Under the pieces are notes generated by a model. That model saw nothing but the letters and a program-made list of their open reading frames with translations. It was not told where the DNA came from and did not search any database. This document shows positions 26,185 to 55,705 of a stretch of 64,000 nucleotides of DNA, piece after piece (within the stretch, counting starts at the first letter, position 1; each line of letters begins with the position of its first letter). The position numbers and the translations under genes were made by a program. Origin of the DNA: Mobula hypostoma (taxonomy: Eukaryota); contig NC_086097.1 of assembly GCF_963921235.1 (NCBI RefSeq), positions 169,014,001 through 169,078,000 of the forward strand. The letters are read 5' to 3'.

Positions 26185-26665
26185 TGGATACCTTGTATTC
26201 CGACCAGGTGACCTCCAACCTGATGGCATGAACTTCGATTTCTCGAACTTCCAGTAATTGCAAACTCCACCCCCCCAACACCATTCCCCACTCCTATTTA
26301 CCTCCCTCACCTCCTTACCTGTCCATCACCTCCCCCTTCCCTTTCTCCACAGTCTTCTACCCTCTCCTATCAGAATCCCCCTTCTCCAGCCCTATATCTC
26401 TTTCACCTATCAACTTCCCAGCTATTTACTTCACCTCTCCCCGTCTCCCGGTTTGACCTATCACCTACCACCTTGTACTTCTTCCTCCCCTCCTCCACCT
26501 TCTTACTCTGAATTCTCATCTTTTTTTCCAGTCCTGATGAAGGGTCTCAGACCAAAACATCGACTGTTTATTCTTTTCATAAATGCTGCCTGGCCTGCTA
26601 AGTTCCTCCAGAATTTTGTGTGTGTGGCTTGGATTTTCAGCATCTGCAGATTTTCTCGTGTTTGA
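26185..26665 (+). mobile_element. PLE 3' end (ORF C-terminus plus pyrimidine-rich terminal repeat) with a degenerate hammerhead
   Basis: Ends an ORF as ...LQPDGMNFDFSNFQ*, like a PLE GIY-YIG C-terminus. CAGTC-CTGATGA...AAAA-CATC-GACTG at 26529-26566. Tail ...catctgcagattttctcgtgtttg. Confidence 0.75.
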
Positions 26666-26919
26666 AATAAAAAGGACTGCTCCAGGTTGTTACCAATCAT
26701 CTGAAACCAAAATGTTAACTCTGCTCCTCTTTCTAACCTGCTGAGCACTTCTGGTATTTTTTTGTTTTATTTCAGATGTCCAGCATCTACATATTTCCAC
26801 ATTTCTATCTTCTGCACATTTTTGCATTTTAACTCAAGTAATAATTTCCCTTCTTAAGATATTCCTTCGGATATGCCCTTAATTTCGTAAATCCACGAGT
26901 TGTTTGTTATGTCTCCCCA

Positions 26920-27280
26920 CCTTGCTGTGATACAGAGACATCTCCTTCTCCCTTACTAGGGAGAGAGAGAGGCTGTAGTATGTCGAACACTGGGTGAACT
27001 GCAAGTCTGTGTCTTTGCTGATGCTTTGCTGCATGCTTAAGTGATCAGTGGTGGGTGCCGAAGCTTTTTTTTTGCTGGTGGGGGAAGGGGGATTGTTGCT
27101 TTGCTACTGCTTACGCATGGGGGGGGAGCTGGGGGAGGGCTTTCAGGTTATAACATTTAACTGTCATTTGTTCTTTGGGGGGCACTCCTCTGTTTTCGTG
27201 GATGGTTGCAAAGAAAAAGTATTTCAGGATGTATACTGTATACATTTCTCTGACATTAAATATACCTTTGAAACCTTTAA
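26920..27280 (+). mobile_element. Non-autonomous retroelement fragment with a Rex1-like 3' tail
   Basis: Ends tgacattaaatatacctttgaaacctttaa, similar to the tgacaataaa plus short-repeat tails of the Rex1 copies here. Confidence 0.45.
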
Positions 27281-27689
27281 TTCTATCCTATTTCTCCAAT
27301 TTACAGGTTACTTGTCAGCAACACCATTTAAAACCAGTTACAGTTTCCATGGTGTACAGTTGAAGATTGAAGGTCTTGAATCCCTATCACAAACACTGTT
27401 CTCACCATCAATTTTCTTGCTCTCCTCTGCAATTGATCCAGACATATTTCAGACCGCAAATTCTATCCCATCTCCATCTTGTCCCAGGCTTTCTCCTTGT
27501 TCTCATTGCCTGTATCCCATCTTACTTTTTCTCAATAACTTAAAATTTATTTATCCTTAATAAAAGCAATTCAATTGAACTTTTAACTCTGTTTATCTTT
27601 ATGCTGATGCTGCCTCCCCTGCTTTATATTTCTGTACTTACTGTTTTTAATTTACTGCTAAGTTATGTATAAAGTATGTATCTCTATGT

Positions 27690-28872
27690 ATCAATTTGCC
27701 TATCGCACCAACAGGTCAACAGAGGATGCCATCTCCACGGCACTTCACTCTGCCCTGACCCACCTGGACAGCCCCAACACTTATGTCAGAATGCTGTTCA
27801 TTGACCTTAGTTCGGCATTCAATACTGTGATCCCCTCCAAGCTGATCGCCAAACTTCACCAGTTTGGTATCAGCTCATCCCTCTGTAATTGGACTTTGGA
27901 CTTTCTGACTAACAGACCCCAATCAGTTAAGTTAGGCAACCTCTCCTCCTCCACTCTCACCCTGAACACCGGCGTGCCTCAAGGCTGTGTGCTGAGCCCT
28001 CCTCTGTACTCCCTTTTCACCTATGACTGCATTCCTGTACATGGTTCTAACTCCGTAATCAAGTTTGCAGACAACACCACGGTGGTTGGCCTCATCAGAG
28101 GGGATGACAAGATGGCCTACAGGGACAAGGTCCAGCACCTGGCCGCGCGGTGCGGCGACAACAACCTGGTCCTTAACCAGAAGACCATGGAGATCATTGT
28201 GGACTTCAGGCATGCTAGGAGCCACACTCATGTCCCCATCTACATCAACAGAGCTGTAGTGGAGCGTGAATCAAGCTTCAAATTCGTTGGTGTCCACATT
28301 TCTGAGGATCTCACCTGGTCCCTGAACTACTCCATCCTGATCAAAAAGGCGCAACAGTGCCTTTATTTCCTGCGGAGCATCAAGAAAGCTCACCTGTGTC
28401 CCAGGATAGTGACGGACTTTTACTGCTGTACCATTGAGAGCATACTCACCAACTGCATCTCAGTGTGGTATGGCAATTGTCTCGTATTGGACCGCAAAGC
28501 ACTCTAGCGTGTGGTGGAAACTGCCTAGCGGATTATCCGCACCCAATTGCCAACCATTGAGAACATCTACCATAAACGCTGCCTGGCAAGGCGAAAAGCA
28601 GCCTCTGCTCCCGCACCAGCAGGCACAGGAAGAGCTTCTTCCCTGAGCTGTGACCCTGCTGAACCTCACATCACAGCGCTGAGCAGTATTGCACCCATAA
28701 TGTACTGACTCAGTACTTTTATATTTGTGTGCTGTAGCACTTACTTTTTATTCACAGCTATTTTGTAAATAACACTATTCTTTGCATTTCTGGTCAGATG
28801 CTAACTGCATTTCATTGGCTTTGTATCTGTACTCGGCACAATGACAATAAAGTTGAATCTAATCTGATCTAA
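27690..28872 (+). mobile_element. Rex1/Babar LINE 3' portion (RT)
   Basis: ORF 27665..28507: [37 protein letters not shown] (FADD altered), LYFLR, IESILT. Tail tgacaataaagttgaatctaatctgatcta. Confidence 0.9.
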
Positions 28873-29242
28873 TGTAATTTACCATATTTTCTGCTGTCAT
28901 TTATGCCAATGTCTCTGGCCTTGCTCTTTCTACTTTCTATAAACTTGAGAGCAATTAAGTTTTAAATGGCAAGTCCTGTTCCATCATCACTGTCTAGGAT
29001 TTGACTGCTTCTGGACTCTGGATAAGACTTTAAAGTTCCCACCCTTGCTTTTACTTCCTCCGTTGTCTTGTTCCCCTAGATTTTGCAAACTTCCTGAGTT
29101 CCACAGCCTTACAAAAAAACTGAACTCCTTCCATACTTTTCCACAACCCTAAACTGAGTTGTTCCAGCATTGGTAGATGTGGTTTCAACTGCTAAAATCC
29201 TAAGCTCCCAAATGCTCTCTCAAAACTTCCCACATCCTTACC

Positions 29243-29465
29243 TTTTACTTTATTTTATTTGGAGATACAGGATGGTGTAAGTGCATCCGGCCCTTCAAGC
29301 CTGGCCTCCCAGCAACCTCTGAATTAACCTTAAGCTCTTTGAGAGAATTTGCAATGACCAAGTAACCTACTAACTGGTACGTCTTTGGACTGTGGGAGGA
29401 AACCAGAACCCCGGATAAAACCCACATATTCCATGGGGAGAATGTAAAACTCCTTACAGAGGATG
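29243..29465 (-). mobile_element. V-SINE (HE1-like) fragment
   Basis: Reverse complement contains the V-domain-like ttctccccatg...gtgggttttatccggggttctggtttcctcccacagtccaaagacgtac and a CR1-like tail. Confidence 0.7.
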
Positions 29466-32043
29466 CATTCTTCCTCTAAAGGAAATTCAGGTCAGGTCAA
29501 AAAACTTGGACTTTATTCACAAGCTAATTACTAAGAAATCCACTTTACCCAAGTCTTCAACAATATTTACCATGAACTTCATTTATAACAGTCTGTCTAC
29601 CAATATGACGAATTTCATGTAGTGAGAGTTTATGATGTGACATTTGCTTCATTCATTTGTTTGAGGTTGAGTAGCAGTTGCCAGAACAGTCTTGGTGAGC
29701 AGCACGGTAGTACACGGAGCACATATCTAGGGGATGTTGAGATTCTTGATTTTTGTGGAAGCTGTACTGATCCAGGCAAATGGAAAATATTCATTCTAAT
29801 TTGTATTGTTGATGATAAAAATGCCTCTGTTTAGTCTGTCTTGTTAGAGATGATCATAGCACAGTACACTTGTAGCATAATTACTTGTCACTTATCGGCC
29901 CACTTTGGCTTGCAGCTCTTCTCGGTTCAGCTGTATTTGCTGAAGAGCAAAAAATGGAATTAAACAACATCCAATCATCAAATAAACATTAGTGAACATC
30001 CTCGCCTCTGATCTTATGACATACATATGGATGTCAATAATTAAGCATAGATGATGGTTTAGCCAAGGACACCTCTCTGAGCAACTCTTTCAGCATTATC
30101 CAGAGGCTAAGCTAATTATGTGACAAGATTAAAAGAAGTATCCAATCTTCCACAGAAAAATGCTGCTTAGAAGTGTGTTCAGTCTATTATTAGTTATCAA
30201 AAATGTCAACCTGAAGTTTAATCAAAATATTTGATTTTGAAATATTTGAAATTAGCATATTTTTCATCATTGTAGTCTATTTTAACATACCTATTTGATA
30301 CATGTTAATCTCCAGAAAAGTGCAACTGGCAACTGAAGAAATACTCAATGTATGATAGAGTCATGGCACAGAAACAGGCATTTTGGTCGATCTAGTCCAT
30401 GACAGCTTGATTTTCCGTCAAGTCCCATCTGCCTGCACCTGGACCATAGCCCTCCATACCCCTCCCATCTACGTACTTATCCAAACTTCTCTTAAATATT
30501 GCAGTCAAACCCGTATTCATCACTTCTAGTGGCAGCCTGCTCAATATTCGCACCACGCTCTGAGTAAAGATGTTCCCTCCTCAGGTTCCGCTTAAATATT
30601 TCATGTTTCCCCCTTAACCTATGCTCTAGTCTCCCCCACTTTTGAGTGGAAAATGCCTGTATCTATCCACCCTATCAATATCCCTCATAATTTTGTATAC
30701 CTCTCCTCATTCTCCCAGTCTCCAGAGAATAAACTCCTAACCTATTCAACCTATCCCTGTAACTCAGGTCTTCAAGTGCTGGCATCATCGATGTACATTT
30801 TTTCTGCACTCTTTCAAGCTTATTCCTGTAGGTAAATGATCAAAACTGTACACAATACTATAAATTTGGCCCCACCAATGTCTTATATAATTTCTACATA
30901 ACATACTAATTCCTGCATTCAATGCCTTGATTTATGAAGACCATGTGCCAAAAGCTCTCTATACAACCCTATCTACTGGTGATGTATAGATCATATATCT
31001 TCCAAGGATCATGTATCTTCCAAATGTGAGTAAATCCTACCTTCAAGAAACCTCTCCAACAATTTCTTTACCACTTATGTGAGGCTTATTGGCCTATAAT
31101 TTCCTGAATTAACCCTATGTCCCTTCTTAAATATAGCAATAACATTGACTATTCTCCAGTCCTCCAGGACCTCACCTGTGGCAAGCGAGGATACAAATAC
31201 CTTTGACAAAGTCTAATAATCTTCTTTCTTGTCTCTGTAAATAACCTGGTATTAATCCCTTCAGGCCCCGGGAAATATCCACATTAATGTTCTTCAAGAG
31301 ACCCAACATAATCTCATTCTTGTTTCAAAATGCCTATTATGTCAAGGGGACATTGCTTTGTGGATCCAGAACTGGCTTGCCCTCAGAAGGCAAACAGTGG
31401 TTGTACACAGGTCATATTCTGCATGGAGGTCAGTCACCAGTGGTGTGCCTCAGGGATCTGTTCTGGGACCCCTACTCTTCATGATTTTTATAAATGACCT
31501 GGATGAGGAAGTGGAGCGATGGGTTAGTAAGTTTGCTGATGACACAAAGGTTGGGGGCATTGTGGATAGTGTGGAGGGCTGTCAGAGGTTACAGCGGGAC
31601 ATTGATAGGATGCAAAACTGGGCTAAGAAGTGGCAGATGGAGTTCAACCCAGATAAGTGTGAAGTGGTTCATTTTGGTAGGTCAAATATGATGGCAGAAT
31701 ATAGTATTAATGGTAAGACTCTTGGCAGTGTGGAGGATCAGAGGGACCTTGGGGTCTGAGTCCATAGGACGTTCAAAGCAGCTGCGCAGGTTGACGCTGT
31801 GGTTAAGAAGGCGTACGGTGTATTGACATTCATCAATCGTGGAACTGAATTTAGGAGCTGAGCATAGTTCCCTCTAAGCTGTGTGCGTGTGCACGCGCAC
31901 TCACGTTTTTCAACCAGTGCACAAAGGAAATTAATGTGTGCACAAAAGTTACCTAAAATAATGTAGTAGTTAATAATTATACTTATTGAAAATAATCTTT
32001 TAGCTAACTGTTTCTGTTAACTAGTTAGTCAGCTTTTCAAATA

Positions 32044-33676
32044 CAGGTTTCCCCTGCCATCCGAAGGTACAGCATTCCTATGAAACGGTTCGTAAGCCGG
32101 AATGTCGTAAAGCGAAGAAGCAATTACCATTTATTTATATGGGAAAATTTTGTGAGCATTCGCAGACCCAAAAATCATCTACTAAATCATACCAAATAAC
32201 ACATAAAACCTAAAATAACAGTAACATATAGTAAAAGCAGGAATGATATGATAAGTACACATCCTATATAAAGTAGAAATACTTTTCCACAATTATTGCC
32301 GGCACTGTTCTCCGTAGCGAAAATCTCACGCAAGCGCTCTTGGCAGAAACACGGCACGAGCGCTCTCCAGTAACCTCTAAGCGATGAAGCTGACAAATCA
32401 TACCAAATAACACATAAAAATACACAGCCTATATAAAGTAGAAATAAGGTATGTACAGTGTAGTATCACTTACGGGAATCGGGAAGACAGCGCAGAGCAC
32501 ACTGATGATGGTGTGTTAGGCTGAGTCGTCGGAGTTTGGGTGGTGCAGTGGCCCTCACCCTCCAGGCAGCGAACCGATACCGATCCACGAAGCATGCAGG
32601 CGTCCAGCGGTAGCCAGGAGGCACACAGCACATCTTTAAGAAAAAAGCCAAAATAAACATGCTAATTAATTAGGTGCTGCCCGGCACGTAATTGTCGGCC
32701 CAGATCAGAGACGATTGCTGATTGCATAACCTCTGATCTGGGCCGACATTTACATGCCCGGCGGCACCTAATTAATTAGCATGTTTATTTTGGCTTTTTT
32801 CTTAAAGATGTGCTGTGTGCTTCCCGGCTACCACTGCATTCTCCGCAGATCGGTATCTGTCCGCAGCCTGGGGGTTGGGGTGGTGGGACACTGGGGTGTC
32901 ATCTCACCGTGGTCTGCTTCCATTAGGGCAGGCAGCTCATCTTCTCCTATGACTGCCCGCCTCGATGTCGAAGGTCAAGGTTCATTGTCTGATGTGGCTG
33001 ATGTGGAAGGCTTGCTTGACTGCTGAGCCTCGCGCATTTTTAGATCATATAGTTCTTTGTAAGCACTCAAACCATCTTGCAAATATCCCCTAAACCGACG
33101 TACCCTTTCAAAATTAAAGTCGTACTTTATCATTGCAGCGAAAATCTCACGCAGTCGCCTCATGTTCAGTTCCTGGATGACTTCACTTTCGCTACTGAAT
33201 TCAGTTTCAATTGTTATCCTTTCCTCTTCCAATTGCATCAGCTCTTCATCTATCAGTTCTTGGTCATGGGATGCCAAAACCTCTTCAACATCATCTTCAT
33301 CAACTTCCACAAGCCAAACTCACTTTGTCCTTACTTCGTTCATCACGATCGAAACACTTAATTATGTCTAGTTTTATGCTAAGTGTAACACCCTTACGAG
33401 CTCTTTCAGGCTTTTCTGATACCTTAGAACTCATCTTGCTAACGGCTGCTCACAGACATGTGTTTAAGCAATGCCGGCGAGAATGCAGTTCTGAATCCGG
33501 GGGAGAGCGCCTGCTGGGGGTGCGCACTGATTTTTATCGCGTGCTGCTTTTTTTCGCATGCTGCCTTTTCTCGTAACAGTGAAAACACCTTCTGTTAGCG
33601 AAAACAGGTACTAATGTAGGTCTTTCGTAACAGTGAGATTTCGTAAAGCGAATGTTCAAAAAGCAGGGGACACCTG
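32044..33676 (-). mobile_element. Tigger/pogo non-autonomous DNA transposon
   Basis: TIRs CAGGTTTCCCCTGC and GCAGGGGACACCTG (13/14); TA TSDs at 32042-32043 and 33677-33678. N-terminal HTH (MSSKVSEKPERARKGVTLSIKLDIIK from 33434) abuts a Tigger C-terminus (EVDEDDVEEVLASHDQEL). Confidence 0.88.
32605..32836. repeat. Long inverted repeat (about 106-bp arms, 20-nt spacer)
   Basis: 32605-32710 is the near-perfect reverse complement of 32731-32836. The ORF track shows MFILAFFLKMCCV on both strands. Confidence 0.95.
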
Positions 33677-33855
33677 TACCATAATGCACGTCACTAATTT
33701 ACATCACCTCACCTATCCTGTTCCGGTTTGTATGGTTGCATCACAGCGGTAGCTATGTTTGGCAGACAGTGTTCATATCGTAAAGTTTACTATGATCTGT
33801 TTCAAATCCGGTAGATAGTTTACTAAGTTTTTACTGGGAAAAATACTGATTCACT

Positions 33856-34732
33856 ATGTCGAATTCAAAAGAAGTGAAGGGCGTGAAGCGCAAAAGAACT
33901 GCAAATTTGTTTAAAGTTGAATGGCTTAACAAAATAGTAGAAACTGCTACACCGAAAGCTCATGAGGTCATGAACATTCAGCTACGAGAAATATTTATGT
34001 TTGATTCAGAAACTGGAGTTATCTGTTTGTATTGTCGTGATGCGAAAGTTGCTGGAGAATTTGCTAGTGGAAAGAAGTGGGATGATATTTGGAAACTTGA
34101 CTTTTTGAAGCGTCATTTGGCAAGTAAATCGCATTTGGACGGGGTAGAAAAGCTCAGGCAACAGAACCCGTCATTATCCGTTACAGGAGTATTATGCATG
34201 TTACGGTTGAGTGCAGATGAGAGAGAGCGAAAATGATCAAGCCCAGAGGAGATCAAAGTTGAGGTACAAGAATGGTCAGCTTCTGATTTCTCCACATATT
34301 GCAGATTGTGATTTCACATTTGGCGATGAACAAATTAATGCCTTATGTCTAAAATATCATGATTTTCAAGCTGAAGATATTGTAATAGTTAGACAGTTTA
34401 ATGATTTCAAATTTTCTGTGCAAGAAAAAATTAAATCCAAACCTACTTCAAACTTTGCTCAAATGGTGGCATTTGTACTTAAAAATGAACAGTTTTGTGA
34501 CCTTGCACAGTTGATGGACATTGGGGGAACCTTTTTTGCATCTAGTGCGGACTGTGAGCGAGGTTTTAGCCTAATGAATCAACTCAAAAACAAGCTAAGA
34601 AACCATTTAGGTGAATGTCATTTGGATATGTTAATGAGAATCAAAAGCTATCAATGGGATGGAAGTTCTATTAGTCGAGATAGAGTTTACAAAGAATGGG
34701 TAAATGCCAAAGACAGGAGAGAGAAAAAATAA
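33856..34732 (+). pseudogene. hAT transposase remnant: N-terminal zinc finger plus C-terminal dimerisation domain; catalytic core deleted
   Basis: ORF 33856..34236 has CLYC...RHLASKSH. ORF 34211..34732 has SSADCERGFSLMNQLKNKLRNHL. Confidence 0.82.
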
Positions 34733-34750
34733 CTGAATGACTTAAATATG

Positions 34751-35229
34751 ATAAAAATTAAATATCTCCAACCTGATGGCATGAACATCGACTTCTGTAA
34801 CTTCCCTTAATGCCCCTCCTCCCCTTTGTACCCTTATTTATTTATTATTATCATTATTATGATTTTTTTTCTTTCCCCTTTTATTCACTCTTTTTTCTCC
34901 CTCTGTCCTTCTCACTATAACTCCTTGCCCATCCTCTGGGCTTCCCCCCTGCCCTTTTCTTTCTCCCTAGGCCTCCCGTCCCATGATCCTCTCCCTTCTC
35001 CAGCTTCGTATCCCTTTTGCCAATCAACTTTCCAGCTCTTAGCTCCATCCCTCCCCCTCCTGTCTTCTCCTAACATTTCGGATCTCCCCCTCCCCCTCCC
35101 ATTTTCAAATCTCTTACTATCTCTTCTTTCAGTTAGTCCTGACAAATGGTCTCGGCCCAAAACGTCGACTATATCTCTTCCTATAGATGCTGCCTCGCCT
35201 GCTGTGTTCACCAGCATTTTTTGTGTGTG
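34751..35229 (+). mobile_element. PLE 3' end with a degenerate hammerhead, inserted in the hAT
   Basis: 13-bp TSD TGACTTAAATATG (34738-34750 and 35230-35242). LQPDGMNIDFCNFP* ORF end. TAGTC-CTGACAA...AAAA-CGTC-GACTA at 35134-35171. Confidence 0.85.
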
Positions 35230-36892
35230 TGACTTAAATATGTATGTTATTTATTCTGTGCAGTTTTATGTCAAATATTTTGTAAACCTACATAAACTGT
35301 CCCATGTGTGCATTCAGTGCACACATACTTTGTCACAGGAAAAAACTTTGTACAACATAAGATTTTTGCGCACACTGACTGCTAAAAATTAGAGGGAGCA
35401 TTGGAGATGAGAGGTAATGTTGCAGCTATATAGGACCCTGGTCAGACCCCACTTGGAGTACTGTGCTCAGTTCTGGTCGCCTCACTACAGGAAGGATGTG
35501 GAAACCATAGAAAAGGTGCAGAGGAGACTTACAAGGATGTTGCCTGGATTGGGGAGCATGCCTTATGAAAACAGGTTGAGTGAACTCGGCCTTTTCTCCT
35601 TGGAGCGACGGAAGATGAGAGGTGACCTGATAGAGGTGTATAAGATGCTGAGAGGCATTGATCGTAAGTCAGAGGCTTTATCCCAGGGCTGAAATGGCTG
35701 CCACAAGAGGGCACAAGTTTAAGGTGCTTGGGAGTAGATACAGAGGAGATGTCGGGGGTAAGTTTTTTTACGCAGAAAGTGGTGAGTGCATGGAATGGGC
35801 TGCCGGCAACAGTGGTTGAGGTGGCTACGGTAGGGTCTTTTAAGAGACTTTTGGATAGGTACATGGAGCTTAGAAAAATAGAAGGCTATGGGTAATCCTG
35901 GTAATTTCTAAGGTAGGGACATGTTTAGCACAACTTTGTGGGCCGAAGGACCTGCAATGTGCTATAGATTTTCTATGTTTCTATATTAGGGTAGCTTACA
36001 CTGATCTTAATATTCTCTATATCCCTCTCCTCAGTAATTCTAATGCTAAGTAATTTAGTACTTCACCGGCATCTTCTGACACCAAGCACAAATGCCCTCC
36101 TTTATCCCTGAATGGTCTTACCCTCTCCCTAGTTATCCTCTTGTTTTAAATGTACTGAAATAATGTCCTGGGGTTCTCTTTAACCGTCCCTGCCAAGGAC
36201 ATTTCTTCTCCCCTTTTAGCCCTTCTAATTCCTTTCTCCAGATTTTTTTTAATTTTTTTAATATTTCTCAAAGACCCTGTCTGAGATCAGCTTCCTAAAC
36301 CTTACATGTACTTCCTTTTTAGTTTTGAGTAAATTTATAACCTTTCTCATCTTCCATGGTTCCCTTTTCTTACTGACTTTGTCCTTCTTCCTTACTGAAT
36401 TCTGGCCAGGTGGTCTTTAAATCACTTCCACATGTCAGATGTGGACTAACCCAACAACAGCTGCTCCCAATTTACTTTCCCAAGCTCCTGCTTAATGATG
36501 CTGCAATTTGCCCAGCCCCAATGTAAAACTTTCCCTCTAGCTCCAGTCTTATTTTTACTCATAGCTAAGTATTAATCACTGTTTCTAATATGCTCTACCA
36601 CTAAAACATTAGTCACCTAGTCAGGATCGTGTCCCAATACAAGATACAGTATGGCCCCTGCTCCAGTTGAACTATCTACATACTGTTCAAGACACTCAAG
36701 CAAAGTCTGCCCATCCTATACTTGCACATCTGCTCCTCTATCTCTTGCTGGCTGTTAACATAGAACAGTACAGCACAGTACAAGCCCTTCAGCCCACAAT
36801 GTTGCACCGACTTTTTAACCTACTCCAAAGATCAAACTAAACCTTCCCTCCTACATAGCCCTCCAGTCTTTCATTCATGTGTGTGTCTTAAG

Positions 36893-38035: not shown

Positions 38036-38352
38036 AATAAAGAGTTTCTTCAATGTCTCTAATGTATCAGCCTCTGCCAACACCACCAGCATTTCACACA
38101 CTTACCACTCTGTGTAAAAAATCTCCTTTTGACAATTCCCCTATACTTCCCTCTAATCTCCTTAAAATCATGCCCTCTTTCCCATTGCTGCACTCTATCC
38201 ATGTCTCTATCAAAGTCACACACATTAAAGTTGCTGGTGAACGCAGCAGGCCAGGCAGCATCTCTAGGAAGAGGTACAGGCGATGTTTCAGGCCGAGGCC
38301 CTTCGTCAGGACTAACTGAAGGAAGAGCTAGTAAGAGATTAGTTTACTCTTA

Positions 38353-39150
38353 GGTAGATGGATAGATATACTTTATTAATCCCAAGGGAAATTTGGTTTC
38401 GTTACAGCCGCACCAACCAAGAATAGAGCGTAAATATAGCAAAACAAAAACCACCAACAAACAACAAAATGCAAACTATGCCAGATGGAAAATAAGTCCA
38501 GGACCAGTCTACTGGCTCAGGGTGTCTGACCCTCCACGGGAGGTGCTGCACGTTCGATGGCCACAGGCAGGAACGACCTCCCGTGCCGCCAAGTGTTGTA
38601 TCGCGGTGGAATGTGGCCGAAGTCCAACAGTAAAAAGTTCAATATCCAGTCTGCAAACACGTTCCTCGATCGTAATATGCCCCGGATTGCACCATCCGTT
38701 GTTAACCAGATCAGTAAGCACCCAACTCCTTTACGCTTACCGCTCTCAGTGCACTTCCGGTCAGCCAGAACGGTATTACCCACCGAACTCCTGTTCTCCA
38801 TAAGTCCCTGTTGTCTCGACCCGGTCCTCTTTCCTTGACTTTGTGAACCCCCTCCGCATCCTCTGTGTTTTTCTCCGGATTTCAGCTCGCTAAACCAGTC
38901 GGCATTAGCTGGTTTCTGGAATACACAATGCAACCTTGCTTCTGTCCCGCGTGTTGGGATGTAACCATTTCCAGCGCTAAAAAAGACCCAAATAAAACTC
39001 TCTCTACCAGCATGTTAAAGAGGGTGCAGCTTCGACGTGTTACCGTGAGAAAAAAAATACAAAAAATAACGTAAATTAAAAAGTAAGAAGAGAGTAAGAA
39101 TAGATCGGAACGGCTGTACCAGGCTGCATGCACAACCGGCGCATGCGCAC
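38353..39150 (-). mobile_element. Internally deleted Rex1/Babar LINE (5' end plus EN fragment fused to the extreme 3' end)
   Basis: EN fragment VNNGWCNPGHITIEERVCRLDIELFTVGLRP is joined to the C-terminal RYNTWRHGRSFLPVAI. 3' tail aatttcccttgggattaataaagtatatctatc. Confidence 0.75.
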
Positions 39151-39179
39151 TAATAGCTCTTACTAGCTCTTCCTTCAGT

Positions 39180-39217
39180 TAGTCCTGACGAAGGGTCTCA
39201 GCCTGAAACGTCGACTG
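39180..39217 (+). ncRNA. Minimal type-I hammerhead ribozyme motif (predicted)
   Basis: Stem I TAGTC/GACTG, core CTGACGA 39185-39191, stem II AGG...CCT, GAAA 39205-39208, GTC triplet 39210-39212. Stem III is only the palindrome ACGT. Confidence 0.75.
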
Positions 39218-40278
39218 TACCTCTTCCTAGAGATGCTGCCTGGCCTGCTGTGTTCACCAGCAACTTTGATGTGTGTTGCTTGAATTTCCAGCATCTGCAG
39301 AATTCCTGGTTGTTTGCTCTATCAAGTCACCTGTCATTTTCCTTCACTCAAAGAGAAAAGCTCTAGCTTGCTCAACCTTTTCTCATAAGATGTGATCTCT
39401 AATCAAGAGAGAATCCGGCAAATCTTTTCTGAATATCCTCTTCTATTGAATGGGCTACAATGTAATCTCATCAGTGATTGCACTTTTTCTATTTTTGACC
39501 TCTATCCATATTTTCTCAGTGGATTGGCCCTCCAATAATGATGTAAATAATTATACTCTAGAGACATCTGTGAAATTAAAACTACAAAAAATTGAACACA
39601 AATTTGATAAGTGGCAAATTAATATGTTTCAAGACATGTTTCGTGCAGACATGCAGAACTAATGCCATTAGGCATCTTCACAGTTCACAATGAAACAATT
39701 TGGTTACAGGTAACAATAAGAAAAAAAATGAGTTTACTTAATCTACTTTTTTTTAATCTTTCCTTGGGGTACACACTAGCGTATTGATCAAGCAGTTATT
39801 TTAAAAATTTCCCCTTGATAAGGCTACTTTAAATAAGGGGTTTAGATAAATTTATGCACCAAATCATTTTCTTCAAACTGGACAAACCAGGAAATTCCTT
39901 TTTTTATGGTGCCAGATTATAAATTTACAAGAAATTTAGCTTTAAATGTTTATCTATGAGTTTAATTTTGTGGAGCTGGAACTTCTTTTGTTTTTTTTCT
40001 CACTATTTTAAATGCACGTGTATGTTTTGCACCTTGGCCGCCGAGGAAGGCTGTCGTATTTGGCTATGTCCATGTATGGTTGAATGATAACTAAACCTGA
40101 TTTGATTTGATTTGATTTGGATGTCGCAATTAAAGCAGATCAAAGTTTTTAAGAATAAAGAATTTAATTATGTCATGTCAATAACGGCATTGTATTCCGT
40201 ACCTTTTGTCATCCATGTGAGTAAAAAACTTCCATTTATTCTTGTGTTTCTAGGTAAAGCAAATGGCCATAATTAACT

Positions 40279-40510
40279 CAAACACGAGGAAATCTGCAAA
40301 TGCTGGAAAGTCAAGCAACACACACAAAATGCTGGTGGAACACAGCAAGCCAGGCAGCATCTATAGGAAGAGGTACAATCGACGTTTCGGGCCGAGACCC
40401 TTCGTTGGACTTCATTAGTCCTGACGAAGGGTCTCGGCCCGAAACGTTGACTGTACCTCTTCCTATAGATGCTGCCTGGCCTTCTGCGTTCCACCAGCAT
40501 TTTGTGTGTG
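40279..40510. mobile_element. 232-bp palindromic PLE-derived element with two opposed hammerhead motifs
   Basis: Arms about 40319-40411 and 40417-40510 with a 5-nt spacer. 15-bp TSD tggccataatt(a/g)act at 40264-40278 and 40511-40525. Confidence 0.9.
40416..40453 (+). ncRNA. Minimal type-I hammerhead ribozyme motif (predicted)
   Basis: TAGTC-CTGACGA(40421-40427)-AGGGTCTCGGCCC-GAAA(40441-40444)-C-GTT-GACTG; GUU cleavage triplet. Confidence 0.7.
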
Positions 40511-40614
40511 TGGCCATAATTGACTAGAACTTTTGGAAAAATTCTGGCATTCATCAGGACAGGCATCATTACATTGTACTAATGCCTAGCAGTGAAACCT
40601 GAACTTGGGGTTGT

Positions 40615-41115: not shown

Positions 41116-41134
41116 TTGGGATATGCAACAGTAA

Positions 41135-41935: not shown

Positions 41936-41949
41936 AAACAATAGTCATT

Positions 41950-42152: not shown

Positions 42153-42164
42153 AAAACAATAGTG

Positions 42165-47160: not shown

Positions 47161-48869
47161 ACTTCAAAGATGAGCAACTGCAAAGGTCAAAATAAAGCAT
47201 TAATTACAAATTTTCCATTAATTGACTTCAGTTAAATATTTTAATTGCTTGTAAGTGTTTAATTGTTCCATTTAAAAAAAATATTTTACATGCTTTAATT
47301 GGTTCATTGAATTTAAGTGTTTTTGGATGTTTCAGAATATCAGATATTCATAGGAGGCTAAAACTGGGTGTGGCTCTGATCCTTTGCGGCTCTGATCCTT
47401 CACAGCAAAACTTGTTCTAGCCTGCAAATGAGACAGAAATACATTGTCTCTATATCACTGAGAATCAGAATGGCTTTGGATATCAAGTCAATTCCAGTGA
47501 GTCTAGAAAAGATAAAGTAATGTTTCCCATGTGGGTCGGTGGCAAGCATACACATACAACACATTGCTGGCAACAATGTAGACATTGATACAAAAGTTGT
47601 ATCAAAAACATGAAATTACTTTTGAATAGACAAATCTTCTTTCCTTATTAGTTTATCTTCACATGATAATTAACACTGCAGGTTTCATTCCAATACAATA
47701 TGAACAGAAAATAATGATTACATCTTAAAAAAGTTTCTTCCAATTTAGGATCACTTCGTTATTCAGGTAATGTGCTTTTCAATAAACCCAGCAATAACAC
47801 TCTACTACACACCTTGCAGAACGAACATGGGAATTATTTTTAAGCCAGTGTCTGTGGCTGAACAAATAATCATCCAGGTATTTAGATTTTCATTCCTGCA
47901 AACTTGCTTAGCATAGAAATGGGACGTCGGCCCAGGAGAATGAGGTAATGTCTAGCTTTTAAGCCAAGCTGTGGAACTGGTAAGACAGTGCGAGTAAACA
48001 TTGTCCTACAGATGACAAAATTTATTTCAACTACAACTCAAATAAAGACTCAATTATACATTTACTTGTGCAGTTTCCTGCTTACATCAACTAACACAAT
48101 TTTCATAATTTGTATTACGTAATTTCACATCACAATGAAATCACATCTACTGAAATACGTAATTGAACTATTAAGTCTGGGAGATAATATGACATGAACA
48201 TAATAAAAAGCTTGTTCTTTCTGGTTAATGCAAATATCAATATAAACATTTTTCAGTCCAAAAAAAATGCCCATTCTTGGTAGCATATGCTTCAAGCTTC
48301 ATAAATTAATTTAATTGACAGTGGTAATGCAAGCTTAAATGATGACCATCATAAAAATTCAAAAACTTGCAATACTGGAAATATAAAATAAATACAGAAA
48401 ATTATGGAAACATTCAGCTGGTCTACCAACATCTGTGGAAAGAGCAACCAAGTAAATAATTCAGATTAGAGCCTCTCTGTCACTAGCATGAACAGGGATC
48501 ATCTTAGCCAAAGTAGAAACAATTTTCATCAGATTCAGATAAATAGACAAGGACATATGGTTTCCAGTATTGATCACTGCATAGCTAAGAAAACAGAGTT
48601 AACAAAGGCTTTCTTGCTCTATTCCCCTCCCACCATCTCCTTTTCAGTTTAGAAGCTCAAGCCATTTATATAATACAAATGGTCTGAGGCCAAGATCAAT
48701 TGATTGAGCAATATTTACAAATTTTTGCTTCAGATGACTAAGAATTGCTTTCTGCATTTGGCTGCCAATATATGTACTACATATGTTCTTTCAAATGGCA
48801 GACTTCAATGATGGCAATGAATGCAAATTCAATGCCATCATCCCTTCAAAATAATCAATAAGCTTTGAG

Positions 48870-49402
48870 ACCTTGGTCTTAATACCTCCTTGCGGATTTG
48901 GATCCTCAATTTCCTCACTTGCAGACCCCAGTCAATTCAGATCCCCATCACTGAGCACATCTACATGGAGTATTGTCACAGGAAAGAAGCATCCATCATT
49001 AGGGGCCCCCACCACTGAGGACATGCTGTCTTCTCACTGCTGTAATCAGGAAGCTGGTACAGGAGCCTCAGAACTCACACCACCAGGTTCAGAGACAGTT
49101 ATTAACCCTTAGCCGTCAGGCTCTTGAACCAAAGGCAATAAGTTCACTCAACTTCACTTGCCCCATCATTGAAATGTTCCCACAACATATGGACTGAATT
49201 TCAAGAAATCTTCATTTCATGTTCTCAATATTTATTGCTTATTTATTTATTATAGTTTCTTTCTTTTTGTACAGTATTTGCACAGTTTGTTGTATTTTGC
49301 ACACTGGCTGAATGTCCAAGTTAGAGCAGTCCTTCATTAATTCAATTATGGTTATTACTCCATTCTGATAACTTTAACAATAAATTTACTTTGAACTTTG
49401 AA
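48870..49402 (+). mobile_element. Rex1/Babar 3' fragments
   Basis: Similar to 36893-37480 on the opposite strand; tail aataaatttactttgaactttgaa. Confidence 0.7.
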
Positions 49403-49552
49403 TTATTCAGAAATAAAAGTCATCACTCTCCAGCTACTATTTTATTGCAAAACAGAGGAGTTAAGAGGGTGAGAAGGGAAATTCCAGAAAGAAAGGTGGA
49501 GTGGGGGGAGAGTAATCTGATAGAGAGAGGGAGATGTATAATGGGAGAGATA

Positions 49553-51070
49553 TAGAACATAGAATAGTACAGCACAGTACAGTACAGGCCCTTCGGCCCA
49601 CAATGTTGTGCCGACCCTCAAACCCTGCCTCCCATATAACCCCCCACCTTAGATTCCTCCATATACCTGTCTAGTAGTCTCTTAAACTTCACTAGTGTAT
49701 CTGCCTCCACCAATGACTCAGGCAGTGCATACCACGCGCCAACCACTCTCTGAGTAAAAAACCTTCCTCTAATATCCCCCTTGAACTTCCCACCCCTTAC
49801 CTTAAAGCCCTGTCCTCTTGTATTGAGCAGTGGTGCCCTGGGGAAGAGGCACTGGCTATCCACTCTATCTATTCCTCTTATTATCTTGTACACCTCTATC
49901 ATGTCTCCTCTCATCATCCTTCTCTCCAAAGAGTAAAGCCCTAGCTCCCTTAATCTCTGATCATAATGCATACTTTCTAAACCAGGCAGCATCCTGGTAA
50001 ATCTCCTCTGTACCCTTTCCAATGCTTCCACATCCTTTCTATAGTGAGGTGACCAGAACTGGACACAGTACTCCAAGTGTGGCCTAACCAGAGTTTTATA
50101 GAGCTGCAACATTACATCACGACTCTTAAACTCTATCCCTCGACTTAGGAAAGCTAACACCCCATAAGCTTTCTTAACTACACTATCCACCTGTGAGGCA
50201 ACTTTCAGGGATCTGTGGACATGTACCCGAGATCCCTCTGCACCTCCACACTACCAAGTATCCTGCCATTTACTTTGTACTCTGCCTTGGAGTTTGTCCT
50301 TCCAAAGTGTACCACCTCACACTTCTCCAGGTTGAACTCCATCTGCCACTTCTCAGCCCACTTCTGCATCCTATCAATGTCTCTCTGCAATCTTTGACAA
50401 TCCTCTACACTATCTACAACACCACCAACCTCTGTGTCGTCTGCAAACTTGCCAACCCACCCTTCTACCCCCACATCCAGGTCATTAATAAAAATCACGA
50501 AAAGTAGAGGTTCCAGAACAGATCCTTGTGGGACACCACTAGTCACAATCCTCCAATCTGAATGTACTCCCTCCACCACCACCCTCTGCCCTCTGCAGGC
50601 AAGCCAATTCTGAATCCACCTGGCCAAACTTCCCTGGATCCCATGCCTTCTAACTTTCTGAATAAGCCTACCATGTGGAACCTTGTCAAATGCCTTACTA
50701 AAATCCATGTAGATCACATCCACTGCACTACCCTCATCTATATGCCTGGTCACCTCCACAAAGAACTCTATCAGGCTTGTTAGACACGATCTGCCCTTCA
50801 CAAAGCCATGCTGACTGTCCCTGATCAGACCATGATTCTCTAAATGCCTATATATCCTATCTCTAAGAATCTTTTCCAACAGCTTTCCCACCACAGACGT
50901 AAGGCTCACTGGTCTATAATTACCCGGACTATCCCTACTACCTTTTTTGAACAAGGGAACAACATTCGCCTCCCTCCAGTCCTCCGGTACCATTGCCGTG
51001 GACAACGAGGACATAAAGATCCTAGCCAGAGGCTCAGCAATTTTTCTCTCGCCTCGTGGAGCAGCCTGGG
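49553..51070 (-). mobile_element. Relatively young 5'-truncated CR1 with an almost intact RT
   Basis: ORFs 50205..51014 (269 aa; NYRPVSLTS, DFSKAFD, PQGSVL, KFADDT) and 49618..50190 (190 aa) are separated by an apparent single frameshift near 50215. Confidence 0.93.
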
Positions 51071-52102
51071 AGGAGACAGGGTGTTGGCTCAGAAGTGGAG
51101 ATCTGTGGGTAAACTGCCATTATGCCCTCAGTGGATGTGTTCTAGATTCCAAATGTATTCTGAATTCTTTTCTGCAAATTATTTTGATTTGCATTTATTT
51201 TCACCATATCCCTTCTCATGTTATTGAAATTGTCCTGGTTGGGGGATGGGGATGTGCAATTTGGCTGGATAATTTTTCCTCTTTCGGCACAATGGGATTG
51301 TGAAGAGTAGGTTATGATGTATTATTTCAATAAGTAATTAATATAGCAAATAGAGGAATGCATTGTGTATTTTATTTATTTGGAATTCAGAAGTCATTTG
51401 ATAAAATCCCTAACAAGAAATGAGTAGTTGAAATTAAACTCACAGAGTCGAAAATAAATTCACTGGAAAGAAAACAGACAGGGGTAAGGAGGCAAAAAGA
51501 TGGCAAAATTGGGCAGGTACTCAAATTGGCAAGACATGTCTATTATGCCTTACTATTATTAAGAATACTTATAAAACTTAAATCATGCAAAAGAATGTTA
51601 GATATCCAAGTTTGATTACGCCATAAAGATAAAAAGTCATTCTATGTAACACCTAGTAATGCAGCACAGAAACAGGCTATTTGGCCATCATAACCTATTT
51701 ATGCCAATTCCTATACGAATCCCACTGTATACTACTACTAATAGACACAGTAAGATCAACTTAGTAGTTGATTAAATTACCCAACTGAATGGGTTTAGAA
51801 CATGAGAGGAAACCAATCACTGGGATGATACCCATCCATTAGTCAGAGTACTACTACAACACAGGAACAGACCCTTCAGCCCATACATTCACAAGGAGAG
51901 TATGCTTGTGACACAGGCAGTGTGAAGATTTGGATTGTGTTGTACAGAGGAAAGTAAAAATGTAATAATGTAATGAATAGGCAAAACTGGCAAATAGATT
52001 TCAATGCACGTAAGTAAGTGAGAATTACAAAGGAGAAAAGCTTTCCAAATTGCAAAAAAATGGAAATCCAAAGGCTTTGCCCAGTGATATATCAGGTGAA
52101 AA

Positions 52103-53370
52103 GTTCAGGATAAATTTATTATTAAAGTACACATATGTCACCGTATACAACCCTGAGATTCATTTTCCTGTAGGCATTCACAATGAAAAAACACACGCAA
52201 GATGGACAAACAACAATGTGCAAAAGACAACAAACTGTACAATACAAAATGGAAATAAATAAATAACCAAAAAATATCAAGAACACGAGATGAAAAGTCC
52301 TTGACAGTGAGTCCATAAGCTGTGGGAACAGTGTAGTGTTGGAGCGAGTGAAGTTGAGTGATGTTATCCTCTATGGTTCAAGAGTCTGATCATTGAGGAG
52401 TAGTAACTCTTCTTTAACATGGCGGCATGAGTCCTGAAGCTCCTGTACTTTCTTCCTGATGGTAGCAGAGAGAAGACAGCACGATCTGGATGGTAGGGGT
52501 CCTTAATAATGGATGCTGCTTTCCAGGGACAGTGTTCCTTGTAGATATGCTCAAGGGTGGGGAGAACTTTCCCATGATGGACTGGGCTATATTGACTACT
52601 TCTTTTAGGCATTTTCATTCAAGGACATTTGTGTTTCCATACCAGGCAATGATGCAGCTAGTCATGCTACTCTCCACTGCACTTCTATAGTAGATCGTCA
52701 ATTTTTAGAAGACATGACGAATTTTTGCAAACTTCAAAGAAAGTAGAGGTACTGCTGTGCTTTCTTTGTAAAGGCACTTATGTGCTGGACCCAATACAGA
52801 TCCGCTGAAATGATAACACCAAGGAATTTAAAGTTGCTGACCCTATACACCTCTGATCCTTGATGAAAGCAGGCTCATAGACCTCCAGTTTCCTCCTTCT
52901 GTAATCAATAATCAGCTCCTTGGTCTTGCTGAAATTGATTGAGAGGTTCACTCAGCCAGATTACAATCTCCCTCTTATACGCTGATTCATCACTACCTTT
53001 GAGTCAGTCAACAACAGTGGTGTTGTCAGCAAACTTAAATGCAGCATTGAAGCTGTGCTTAGCTTCATAGTCATGAGTATAAAGTGACTAGAGCAGAGGG
53101 GCTAAGTACACAGCCTTGTGGTGCACCTGAGCTAATGATAATTGTAAAGGAGATGTTATGCCAATCCAAACAGACTGAGGAAAATGAGGATCCAGTTGCA
53201 CAAGGAAGTATTGAGGCTGTGGTCTTAGAGCTTATTGATTAATCTTGAGGGGTTGATAGTACTGAGTGTTGACAGTGAGATCTTCACTATCTCGGTGTTC
53301 CAGGGTTGAGTGAAGAGCCAATGAGCTGGCATCTGCTATTGACCAGTTGTGTTGGTAGGCAAACTGTTCC
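52103..53370 (-). mobile_element. Rex1/Babar LINE 3' portion, decayed
   Basis: Minus strand reads [19 protein letters not shown] and KFADNTT, plus KAASIIKDPYHP...LLPSGRKYRS. Confidence 0.82.
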
Positions 53371-53374
53371 ATAT

Positions 53375-55705
53375 GAACATTAGACATAGGAAATGAATTA
53401 GGCCATTCAGCCCATTGAGTCTGCTCCACCATTTCATCACGGCTGATGCCATATCCCACTCAACCCCACACACCTGCCTTCTTGCCATATTCTTTGATGC
53501 CCTGACCGATCAGGAAACATGCAACTTCCACTTTAAATGAACACAGACTTGGCCTCCACCACAGTCTCTGGCAGAGAAATCCACAGATTCACTACTCTCT
53601 GGCTAAAAAAAATTCCTCCTTAACTCTGTTCTAAAAGCTTGTCCCTCAATTTTGAGGCTGTGCCCTCTAGCTTGGATACCCCCACCATAGGAACCATTCT
53701 AGCCACATCCACCCTATCTGGTCCTTTCAACATTCATTAGGTTTCAATGAGATCCCTACGTATTCTCCTGAATTCCAGTGAGTACAGGTCCAAAGATGCC
53801 AAATACTCTGCATATGTTAACCCCTTCATTCCCAGAATCATCCAAGGCAACCAACTCTGGACTCTCCCCAATGACAACACATCGTTTCTGAGATATGGAG
53901 CATTGTAGGAAGTCATTCCTGCCTGTGGCCATCAAACTTTACAACTCCTCCCTTGGAGGGGCAGACATCCTGAGCCAATAGGCTGGTCCTGGACTTATTT
54001 CACAATTTACTGGTATAATTTACATAGTACTATTTAACTATTTATGGTTCTATTACTATTTATCATTTATGGAGCAACTGTAACAAAAACCAATTTCCCC
54101 CAAGATTAATAAAGTATGACTATGACTATGTTCTATCCCCCTTGAAATAAAAGCCAACATTGCATTTGCCTTCTTTACCACAGACTCAACTTATAAATTA
54201 ACCTTCTGGGAGTCTTGCAAAAGGACTCTTAAGTCCCTCTGTATATCTGATCTTTGAACCTTCTTCCCATTTAGATAACAGTCCACACTATTGTTCCTTT
54301 TGCCAAAGTACACTATCATACATTGCCCAGCACTGTATTCCATCTGTCACTATTTTGCCCATTCTTCCAATTTGGCTAAGTCCTGCTGGAACCACGTTGC
54401 TTCCTCAGCACCACCTACTTCTCCACCTATTTTTGTATCATCCACAAACTTTGCCACAAAGCCAACTCCATTATCCAAATCACAGATAAACAATATGAAA
54501 AATCTCTGAGGAATACCACCTGTCACCGGCAGCCAAACAGAACAGGCCCCCTTTTATTCCCATTTACTGACTCCTGCCTGTCAGCCATTCCTCTATCCAT
54601 GCCAATATCTTTCCTGTAATGCTACAGGATTTTATCTTGTTAAGCAACCTCATGTACCCAACCAAATACCTTCTGAAAATCCAAGTAAATGACATCCACT
54701 GCCTTTCCTTTGTCCACCCTGCTTGTTACTTCCTTGAAGAACTCTAGCAGATCCGTCAGGCAAGATTTTCCTTTACATAAACCATGCTGACTTTGACTTA
54801 TTTTATCATTAGTCTCCAAGTACGCCAAAACCTCATCCCTTAAGAATAGACTCCAACACTTTCACAGCCTCTGAGGTTAGGCTAATTGGCCTATAATTTC
54901 TTTTCTTTTGGAGTTACATTTGCAATCTTCCAGTCCTCTGGAACCATACCAGAATCAAGTGATTCTTGAAAGATCATGACCAATGCATCCGTTATCTCTT
55001 CAGCAACCTCTCTCAAGACTCTGGGATATAGTCCATCTGGTCCAGGTGACATCCATCTTAAGACCTTTGAGGTTGCCTAGCACTTTTTCCTTTTCCTTTT
55101 TTTTAGATTATGAGGACACTCAGTCCTCGTTTATTGTCATTTATTATCACTTGTCAAGAGATTTTACTAGCTCTTCCTTTAGTTAGTCCTGACGAAGGGT
55201 CTCGGCCCAAAACGTCGACTGTAGCTCTTCCTAGAGATGCTGCCTGGCCTGCTGCGTTCACCAGCAACTTTGATGTGTGTTATGTACGGCACCCTACTTG
55301 ACAAATAACAGACATCACCACCAGAGAGGCCACTGTGAGCTGCGTTGCGCCGCCATCTTCTCCTCCTGCCTATTGTATTAGTATTAGCAATGGCACTCAC
55401 TCCTGTTCCCTGACACTTACTGACCTCTGGCACACTGCTAGTATCTTCCACAGTGAAGACAGATGAAAAGTATCCATTAAGTTCATCTGCCATTTCTTTG
55501 TCCCCAATTACTACCTCACTAGCATCATTTTCCAGTGGTCTAATATCAACTCTCACCTCCCTTTTATTCTATATATAACTGAAAAAACTTTTAGTATCCT
55601 GCATTATATTTTTGGCTAGTTTGCCTTCATATTTCATCTTTTCCCTTCTTATAGCTTTATTAGTTGCCTTTTGATGGATTTTAAAAGCTTCCCAATCATC
55701 CAAGT
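53375..55705 (-). mobile_element. CR1 LINE with nested insertions (Rex1 tail about 53900-54130; composite 55095-55370)
   Basis: ORFs 54640..54828 (SCLTDLLEFF) and 55179..55556 (EMADELNGYFSSVFT). Confidence 0.85.
55160..55280 (+). mobile_element. PLE terminal-repeat fragment with a hammerhead motif, inside a short non-autonomous element (55095-55370, minus)
   Basis: TAGTC-CTGACGA(55189-55195)-AGGGTCTCGGCCC-AAAA-CGTC-GACTG. The host element has AAGATGGCGG at its 5' end and a tgacaataaa tail. Confidence 0.75.

Follow-up and report, generated by a model that had tools for sequence, protein, structure and literature searches.

Seven short hammerhead-like repeats are dispersed over a 64-kb window (the whole stretch of Mobula hypostoma DNA that was analysed), which raises the question of how they arrived there and whether they can still cut RNA. 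A sequence-only reading had reported seven readable copies, and reading back the sequence confirmed the place and strand of each, with C3 at 26534+, 35139+, 38309-, 39185+, 40407-, 40421+, and 55189+, as well as the predicted cut site, H17 of the 39180 copy, at C39212. The copies are not all intact, as the full core is present in only two of the seven. Nor are they independent: the seven motifs represent six insertions, because those at 40376 (minus strand) and 40416 (plus strand) are inverted arms within one 11-bp target duplication. The repeats are the 3' pseudo-LTR (pLTR) ends of a Penelope-like element (PLE), and their 36-38-nt motif is a minimal type I hammerhead as published for PLEs, matching the consensus (PMC4209133), as had been recognized from the sequence. 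It is very probable that the repeats are six 5'-truncated PLE insertions carrying a minimal hammerhead, likely as decaying leftovers that do not cut, and that the motif of the parent element likely works as published for other PLEs.

A profile of the seven copies recovered all of them in the window at E <= 5e-32, a match by construction, and no eighth copy, the next-best match having an E of 0.055. A minimal-hammerhead descriptor matched the window twice, at 39185+ and 40421+, so that two of the seven single copies pass it in full, and it had no match in 200 dinucleotide-type shuffles of the window. The check with Rfam hammerhead covariance models, proposed by the sequence-only reading, did not detect a hammerhead family: the whole window had no Rfam match at gathering score, and hammerhead families were absent among the 16 matches up to E 10 between 39.0 and 40.7 kb. 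The Rfam hammerhead models expect a loop on stem III. Matches to microRNAs at 40.4 kb, with scores far under gathering, are the inverted arms of insertion 5 and were rejected. An exact motif scan of metagenome contigs gave no matches, and blastn against phages found none to the repeats.

The proposed PLE origin was borne out by ORF ends and a reverse transcriptase (RT) that match the same ray PLE proteins. The RT, expected at 17.3-19.6 kb, was found with PLE proteins of sharks, rays, and corals as queries (tblastn, E to 9e-85) within a decayed ORF on the minus strand (17267-19591), which comprises the N-terminal part, RT, and thumb with stops and frameshifts, and lacks the endonuclease and pLTR. 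The ORF is interrupted by a LINE fragment (17458-18317, minus strand), which matches many other LINE copies in the window and which we take to be of the CR1 type from its RT motifs. The PLE homology breaks off and resumes around it: positions 18630-18316 are 57-65% identical to four ray proteins (61-65% for three), and the homology resumes at 17456-17267. The closest named relatives are ray proteins with an RT, a zinc-finger linker, and a GIY-YIG domain, ending in LQPDGMNIDF. Three of them (P0207, P0208, and P0135), with RT thumbs 57-61% identical to the window RT, combine the thumb, a Cx2-5CxxC linker, the GIY-YIG region, and an LQPDG/LQPGG C-terminus in one ORF. The linker is present in the ray relatives and in all 65 fetched proteins with both endonuclease motifs; the window copy is without that region. 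With the Pfam GIY-YIG model, whose cut-off is 22.6 bits, four shark and ray relatives scored 19.6-23.2 bits, one of them above the cut-off, and full-length P0015 scored 25 bits. A Cx2-5CxxC linker between RT and endonuclease is a feature of the Neptune/Nematis clades.

ORF ends reading LQPDGMN[F/I]DF are retained upstream of two of the seven motifs, as had been noted, but they do not directly adjoin them; pyrimidine-rich UTRs of about 270 and 320 nt lie between. Ray proteins as tblastn queries detected the ORF ends at E 8e-5 to 0.03. A C-terminal HMM made mostly from non-fish proteins ranked both first but without significance (iE 0.38-0.78), and Pfam missed all seven PLE fragments when run singly, with only a weak DUF match (E 0.09). 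The catalytic part of the GIY-YIG domain is absent from the window, and the window RT has lost its own 3' end; therefore, the RT and the pLTR are joined only through the relatives. Our literature search found no paper describing a shark Neptune/Penelope hammerhead ribozyme.

Insertion 1 on the plus strand contains the C-terminal end of the GIY-YIG ORF (…LQPDGMNFDFSNFQ*; 26190-26257; by translation and by tblastn matches with the C-termini of PLE proteins from rays and sharks, E 8e-5 to 8e-4), followed by a pyrimidine-rich 3' UTR/pLTR (26258-26528). This UTR/pLTR is only 54% identical to its counterpart in the 35134 copy and, judged by its sequence, is of another subfamily than the remaining copies. 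Its hammerhead (26529-26566) is broken by G12A, a lost palindrome, and one stem II mismatch, and the downstream part of the pLTR with a tail (26567-26665), a long 3' end, aligns to the end of the longest copy. Insertion 2 on the plus strand is flanked by a 13-bp target-site duplication (34738-34750 and 35230-35242; p = 0.0007 versus 3000 random flank pairs), the left copy of which is separated from the element by 15 nt. Its PLE ORF end (LQPDGMNIDF…, 34766-34811), identified by translation and by loose ends of related contigs, is 5'-truncated at 34766; upstream of this position, loose ends in all four sequencing runs continue into the PLE C-terminal motif. The hammerhead of this tailless copy (35134-35171) is broken by G8A, G10.1U, and G12A.

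The remaining insertions are short pLTR ends. Insertion 3 (38213-38343, minus strand) is tailless, and its hammerhead (38277-38314) has lost the palindrome and contains a stem I mismatch and C11.1U. Insertion 4 (39150-39316, plus strand) has a tail and a hammerhead (39180-39217) with an intact core and a G10.1-U11.1 wobble, for which cleavage is predicted after 39212. Insertion 5 lies within the 11-bp duplication (40264-40274 and 40511-40521; p = 0.0023) and consists of an inverted arm with a tail (40278-40411, minus strand), whose hammerhead (40376-40411) has U4 deleted and G5A, and a tailless direct arm (40410-40512, plus strand), whose hammerhead (40416-40453) has an intact core and a GUU triplet and is predicted to pair with the other arm. 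Insertion 6 (55156-55281, plus strand) is tailless, starts with an inverted piece of about 9 nt, and carries G12A in its hammerhead (55184-55221). The window is without a full-length or tandem copy of the element.

The ends of the copies indicate how they were made. Two classes of 3' ends are present, at +102 to +104 nt from the cut site in three of the seven copies and at +64 to +73 nt in four, and all seven copies span the cut site. Clear target duplications flank two of the six insertions (13 and 11 bp); they are absent in three, and a fourth has only a doubtful one of 8 bp. Insertion 5 combines an inverted arm, a tail on one arm, and the duplication; tails measure 31-40 nt. Endonuclease-bearing (EN+) PLEs leave an inverted 5' copy and a one-sided tail of 30-40 bp (Craig et al. 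2021, PMC8557442; Arkhipova et al. 2013, PMC3846280), and the insertions resemble this canonical Neptune/Nematis-type unit in their 5' truncation, adjacent inverted copy, and tail at one end, with duplications of 11-13 bp here versus 8-10 bp in the rotifer examples. The Poseidon element PAc of the green anole likewise carries a hammerhead in its pLTR and an optional tail of 30-40 nt arising from two RT start sites downstream of the ribozyme; its ribozyme is protein-assisted, and uncleaved RNA is its main substrate and template (Frangieh et al. 2024, PMC11167929). Unlike PAc, which belongs to the Penelope/Poseidon clade, the ray relatives of the element carry the Neptune/Nematis zinc-finger linker. 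The element's endonuclease and RT likely produced the genomic copies from uncut or re-ligated RNA, starting at either of two internal priming sites some 35 nt from each other, which would account for the two classes of 3' ends, the inverted arm, and the target duplications.

The short copies could instead be examples of a 130-170-nt unit, non-autonomous and retrozyme- or SINE-like, which borrows the PLE protein and spreads by ribozyme cutting and circles. Three short copies begin within 25-31 nt upstream of C3, and retrozymes related to PLE pLTRs have been reported in one chondrichthyan (10.64898/2026.07.22.740005). Non-LTR retrozymes share the type I hammerhead, the link to PLE pLTRs, and, in vertebrates, the dimer dependence (PMC7229834; 10.64898/2026.07.22.740005), but they are tandem with a ribozyme in each unit, whereas searching the window with the copies gave only dispersed matches and one inverted pair, without tandem units. 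No copy begins at the cut site, two extend into the ORF end, and the 3' ends, located at PLE RT start sites, and the inverted arm are typical of ordinary PLE insertions. We consider a retrozyme-like unit very unlikely.

The anatomy of the motif identifies its closest counterpart. The minimal hammerhead of PLEs has a known consensus with an extra nucleotide and a palindrome, is inactive as a monomer, and has low activity as a dimer; the extra base, palindromic stem III, and dimer-only cleavage were all described by Cervera and De la Pena in 2014 (PMC4209133). The majority of the seven copies have CUGANGA, GAAA, and NUH in type I order and, like the published motif, one unpaired base, a G10.1-C11.1 pair closing stem II, a short stem I (4-5 bp here), and palindromic 15.2/16.2 positions without a stem III loop. 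The extra A between A9 and G10.1 had been attributed to copies with a GGG/CCC stem II; the base is there, but it is present in all seven copies. The 10.1/11.1 pair is G-C in four copies, G-U in two, and broken in one; our literature search found no source on the effect of a G10.1-U11.1 pair. The palindromic positions read CG in five copies and CA in two. As in the PLE survey, most copies are single and dispersed on truncated elements, with some close pairs on opposite strands. The closest listed example is the Neptune motif of Acropora digitifera, which shares the core and the C-G-U-C cleavage region and has a stem II of 4 bp capped by a 4-nt loop, and no cartilaginous fish is among the species of Table S1 and Fig. 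S3 of the survey (PMC4209133).

The inserted motifs appear to decay as unselected methylated DNA would. Five of the seven have lesions in the core or palindrome, and the changes concentrate on CpG (12 of 70 CpG cells versus 8 of 189 others, p = 0.0013). The core shows no protection from change, whether at CpG (4/14 core versus 8/56 non-core changed) or outside it (2/63 versus 6/126). The CpG at 11.1/12 is changed in five of seven copies versus 7 of 28 cells at the other four CpGs, but its p = 0.033 is not counted significant, since this was one of five sites and chosen afterwards. Among the seven copies, 90% of stem cells are paired, a level reached by 128 of 500 shuffles, and the sole two-sided stem change stems from the misaligned 40411 row, so that there is no real covariation.

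The sequence-only reading expected that a monomer is unable to form stem III and that cleavage needs a dimer, in agreement with the published PLE motif (PMC4209133). Its dimer model holds as regards ACGU pairing, but this does not suffice in the folding calculations, where the partners must also exchange stem I strands. For a single RNA, without stem III, the predicted fold is a collapsed, inactive rod that pairs G5-G8 with the cleavage triplet (pair probabilities of 0.82-1.0 in both intact copies). On a tandem transcript, two motifs would trade strands of stem I and join through their ACGU palindromes, and cleavage after C17 would be weak and would likely require assistance by the element's protein; such assistance has been shown for PAc only (PMC11167929). 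The 39185 copy has a full core and lies outside any hairpin. For the best-preserved copy, 40421, the prediction is that the inverted arm of its own insertion ties it up in a hairpin of about 100 bp, with P(stem I) = 0. In cofolding, the double hammerhead lies 6.5-10.5 kcal/mol above two monomers, and forcing the cis dimer of 39185 and 40421, the only intact pair on one strand, costs 75 kcal/mol; since nearest-neighbour energies take no account of tertiary contacts in the core, of Mg2+, or of protein, these penalties overstate the barrier, the 75 kcal/mol less so. With five copies core-damaged and the other two predicted not to fold into the cutting shape, the copies are likely inert leftovers.

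These results bear on the idea that the dispersed copies cut or cross-pair host transcripts crossing the region, in cis or in trans. In its favour, the two full-core copies share a strand, are separated by 1.24 kb, and could form a double hammerhead with standard pairs only, and the family is very abundant, with 489 to 24,528 matching contigs per run. However, the lesions, the hairpin lock, and the cost of the cis dimer argue against it, PLE dimers cleave weakly in vitro (PMC4209133), and the anole element shows no RNA-seq ends at its cut site (PMC11167929). Pfam domains were matched in 11 of 132 tested ORFs, all of them from mobile elements, and no host exon was detected by this search in the window. 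The claim is thus unsupported, and we regard it as very improbable. An equally remote extension can be imagined, in which the great abundance of this PLE hammerhead in rays lets intact copies in pre-mRNAs meet partners in trans, the G5-G8/CGUC rod is an off switch released by the element's protein, PLE expression triggers sequence-specific cutting of many host transcripts, and the three short copies mark the 5' end of an uncut pLTR transcript. Were host RNA to be cut in trans by intact copies, this would be relevant to transcript quality control in cartilaginous fishes.

Whether the parent element itself still cuts is a separate matter, compatible with inert copies. The motif may no longer cut in this family and be kept as a structure or protein-binding site near the RT starts, or as a passenger. 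The cut site was intact and was copied through in every case, related runs commonly show G12A, catalytic mutants had no effect on insertion of the anole element in vitro (PMC11167929), and Naiad PLEs proliferate without canonical hammerheads (PMC8557442). We nevertheless find loss of cutting unlikely, since all 11 core positions and the palindrome are retained in the majority state of the seven copies, and in four runs 83-99% of contig depth supports G at G8 and G10.1. Among the four best-supported rows per run, three runs have loose ends at 35135-35136 and two have them at 35170, which are the two edges of stem I; therefore, other subfamilies seem to share the motif and not its flanks. From these contig sequences, conservation of the motif without its flanks suggests selection in active lineages. 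G12 reads G in only 14-40% of contig depth, a share probably biased by the likeness filter because depth there drops by a factor of two to ten (three to ten between 35147 and 35159), and G12A may mark an expanded subfamily rather than decay alone.

The favoured reading, six decaying PLE insertions, brings a ray family into a class of motifs that has been on record since 2014 in dozens of animals. As it stands, the finding is of small importance and of an ordinary, known kind. A family of very high copy number would offer statistical power on core selection and on RNA cutting at C17, given the whole genome and raw RNA reads. Stem I is adjoined by a pyrimidine tract and AG, like the intron end in D. 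virilis, but a role as a splice acceptor was unsupported: none of 15 of the 37 joints had GT..AG ends or landed at the stem I edge, and the loose ends at 35135-35136 finish in letters resembling those of the other subfamily. One of the Pfam-positive ORFs also matches ALKBH8_N, beside its RT.

The repeats reported by the sequence-only reading are all present (26529+, 35134+, 38277-38314 minus, 39180+, 40376-40411 minus, 40416+ and 55184+), and the seven form one family of 105-170 nt with pairwise identities of 75-94% in local alignments. A profile built from the seven detected no eighth copy in the window (next match E 0.055). A hammerhead descriptor (CUGANGA, an optional base, a stem II ≥ 3 bp, GAAA, the 15.2/16.2 pairing, UH and a stem I ≥ 3 bp) matched twice in the window and never in 200 shuffles. 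Therefore, the hammerhead motif is real but complete in two copies only. By all the sequence features that could be tested, it is a minimal hammerhead of a Penelope-like element (PLE). Every feature named in the earlier reading was described by Cervera and De la Pena in 2014 (PMC4209133), who report the base between positions 9 and 10.1, the palindrome, low activity as a dimer only, single motifs by the thousand on truncated elements, and neighbouring pairs on opposite strands; the motif of an Acropora Neptune element in that paper has the same layout. The tail mechanism and protein-assisted ribozyme were described by Frangieh et al. 2024 (PMC11167929). We found no paper on this PLE hammerhead family in rays; the supplements of a 2026 retrozyme preprint may list it for one chondrichthyan, and Lunse et al. 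may include shark or ray motifs.

A decayed PLE reverse transcriptase (RT) ORF, interrupted by a LINE, lies at 19591-17267 on the minus strand, and its closest named relatives are from Amblyraja, Mobula, Hypanus, Chiloscyllium, Rhincodon and Stegostoma, which makes a ray the likely host. The ray PLE proteins P0207, P0208 and P0135 align to this RT and to both ORF ends in the window, and in each of them a single frame holds the RT thumb, the Cx2-5CxxC linker, the GIY-YIG region and an LQPDGMNIDF-like C-terminus. Such a linker is described for the Neptune and Nematis clades (PMC8557442), and its presence in these relatives suggests that the parent element may come from one of the two. The ray proteins P0001, P0135 and P0136, named by NCBI as NMRK1, DIPK1C and CHID1 isoforms, are largely PLE ORF and are likely gene-model errors or exonised insertions. 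Contigs of four sequencing runs were aligned to 34740-35270, and in every run their loose ends at 34766 run on into the part of the PLE C-terminus that lies upstream; therefore, this copy is 5'-truncated at 34766. The 26529 and 35134 copies are 54% identical in the UTR and 79-87% in the ORF end and motif, and as judged by sequence the former belongs to a different subfamily. In both subfamilies, stem I is adjoined by a CTTAC resembling a branch point, together with a pyrimidine tract and an AG (35105-35138 and 26503-26533). This arrangement recalls the intron end adjoining the D. virilis ribozyme; no spliced joint was present among the contig rows listed.

One insertion accounts for both 40376(-) and 40416(+), which form its head-to-head arms; the tail is on one arm only, and an 11-bp duplication flanks both (p = 0.0023). 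The window thus holds six insertions of the family, which amounts to one in every 10.7 kb. Comparison of the flanks of the six showed a 13-bp duplication at 35134 (p = 0.0007), a doubtful 8-bp one at 26529 (p = 0.045) and no target duplication at three. The layout is that of canonical PLEs (PMC8557442, PMC3846280). The copies extend past the cut site by either 102-104 nt (three copies) or 64-73 nt (four), matching the optional PLE tail of 30-40 bp, which the anole element produces through RT starts at two internal sites (PMC11167929). All seven span the cut site, which suggests that the insertion templates were uncut or re-ligated RNA. Independent short insertions at 38343(-), 39150(+) and 55156(+) begin 25-31 nt upstream of C3 (~34 nt for 55156 if an inverted piece is counted); this shared start (n = 3) may mark the 5' end of a transcript or a stop of the RT.

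Lesions were scored against the majority of the seven copies, named here by their C3 position. Copies 39185 (C11.1U, one loop change) and 40421 (C17U) have an intact core. Copy 26534 carries G12A, a CG to CA change in the palindrome and one stem II mismatch; 35139 carries G8A, G10.1U and G12A; 38309 has lost the palindrome and has a stem I mismatch and C11.1U; 40407 has U4 deleted and G5A; and 55189 carries G12A. The required core includes G5, G8 and G12 (PMC7151607), and G8C abolished cleavage in a PLE ribozyme (PMC11167929). Changes affect 12 of 70 CpG cells versus 8 of 189 others (p = 0.0013), and the core is not spared relative to the rest, either at CpG cells (4/14 versus 8/56, p = 0.24) or elsewhere (2/63 versus 6/126). 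This pattern would fit unselected, methylated DNA, with low power at seven copies, among which covariation gave no real signal. The CpG closing stem II (C11.1-G12) is changed in five of seven copies, versus 7/28 at the remaining four CpGs (uncorrected p = 0.033), which could be a subfamily trait or reflect the loss of active copies.

At G8 and G10.1, 83-99% of the contig depth of the four runs reads G, and the changes in 35139 are therefore private. G12 is G in only 14-40%, and depth falls three- to tenfold from 35147 to 35159; either mapping bias or a subfamily rich in G12A could account for this. Loose ends at the stem I edges (at 35135-35136 in three of the runs and at 35170 in two, among the 24 of 955 rows listed) suggest that the motif is common to the subfamilies and its flanks are not, as would fit selection in active lineages.

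Folding energies were computed with no term for ions, protein or tertiary contacts. The predicted fold of a lone intact motif is a rod, in which G5-A6-C7-G8 pairs with C15.2-G16.2-U16.1-H17 (probabilities 0.82-1.0) and the cleavage triplet is buried. The ACGU duplex by itself contributes only -1.7 kcal/mol. A dimer is expected, as put forward earlier, but ACGU pairing is not enough for the active form, which would also need the 5' strand of stem I in each motif to be paired with the 3' strand of the other. A double hammerhead of both intact copies is predicted to use standard pairs only; its computed energy is 6.5-10.5 kcal/mol higher than that of two monomers and 14-15 kcal/mol higher than that of the most favourable other dimer, in agreement with the low activity reported for PLE minimal motifs (PMC4209133) and with the anole ribozyme's dependence on protein (PMC11167929). 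The suggestion that the copies cut or cross-pair transcripts is not borne out: most are lesioned, 40421 is predicted to be locked in read-through RNA in a hairpin with its inverted arm over ~100 bp (P(stem I) = 0), and forcing 39185 and 40421 into a cis dimer within an RNA of 1371 nt is computed to cost 75 kcal/mol. The copies in the window are most likely inert relics. The earlier observation holds, and its interpretation is supported in part. The near-perfect inverted repeat at 40315-40514 (~100 bp, -179 kcal/mol), if transcribed, would yield dsRNA, a possible source of small RNA against the element.

Within the window, 43% of the sequence is repeated. Outside repeated DNA, 11 of 132 stop-to-stop frames of at least 62 aa had Pfam matches, all to mobile-element domains; one also matched ALKBH8_N, beside its RT. 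Short exons or a long intron may lie in the window. Other mobile-element relics (226-837, 12917-15321, 3380-4816, 33850-34732 and 19781-20053) comprise pieces of LTR-retrotransposon integrase and RT, a long frame resembling a transposase and a Tc1-type helix-turn-helix, and include what we take to be a hAT-like end adjoining the 35134 insertion. The motif lies between the two units of a short pyrimidine-rich direct repeat, at 39164-39170 and 39221-39228 and at the same places in other copies; the letters preceding the repeat agree between both sides in copies 35134 and 55184.
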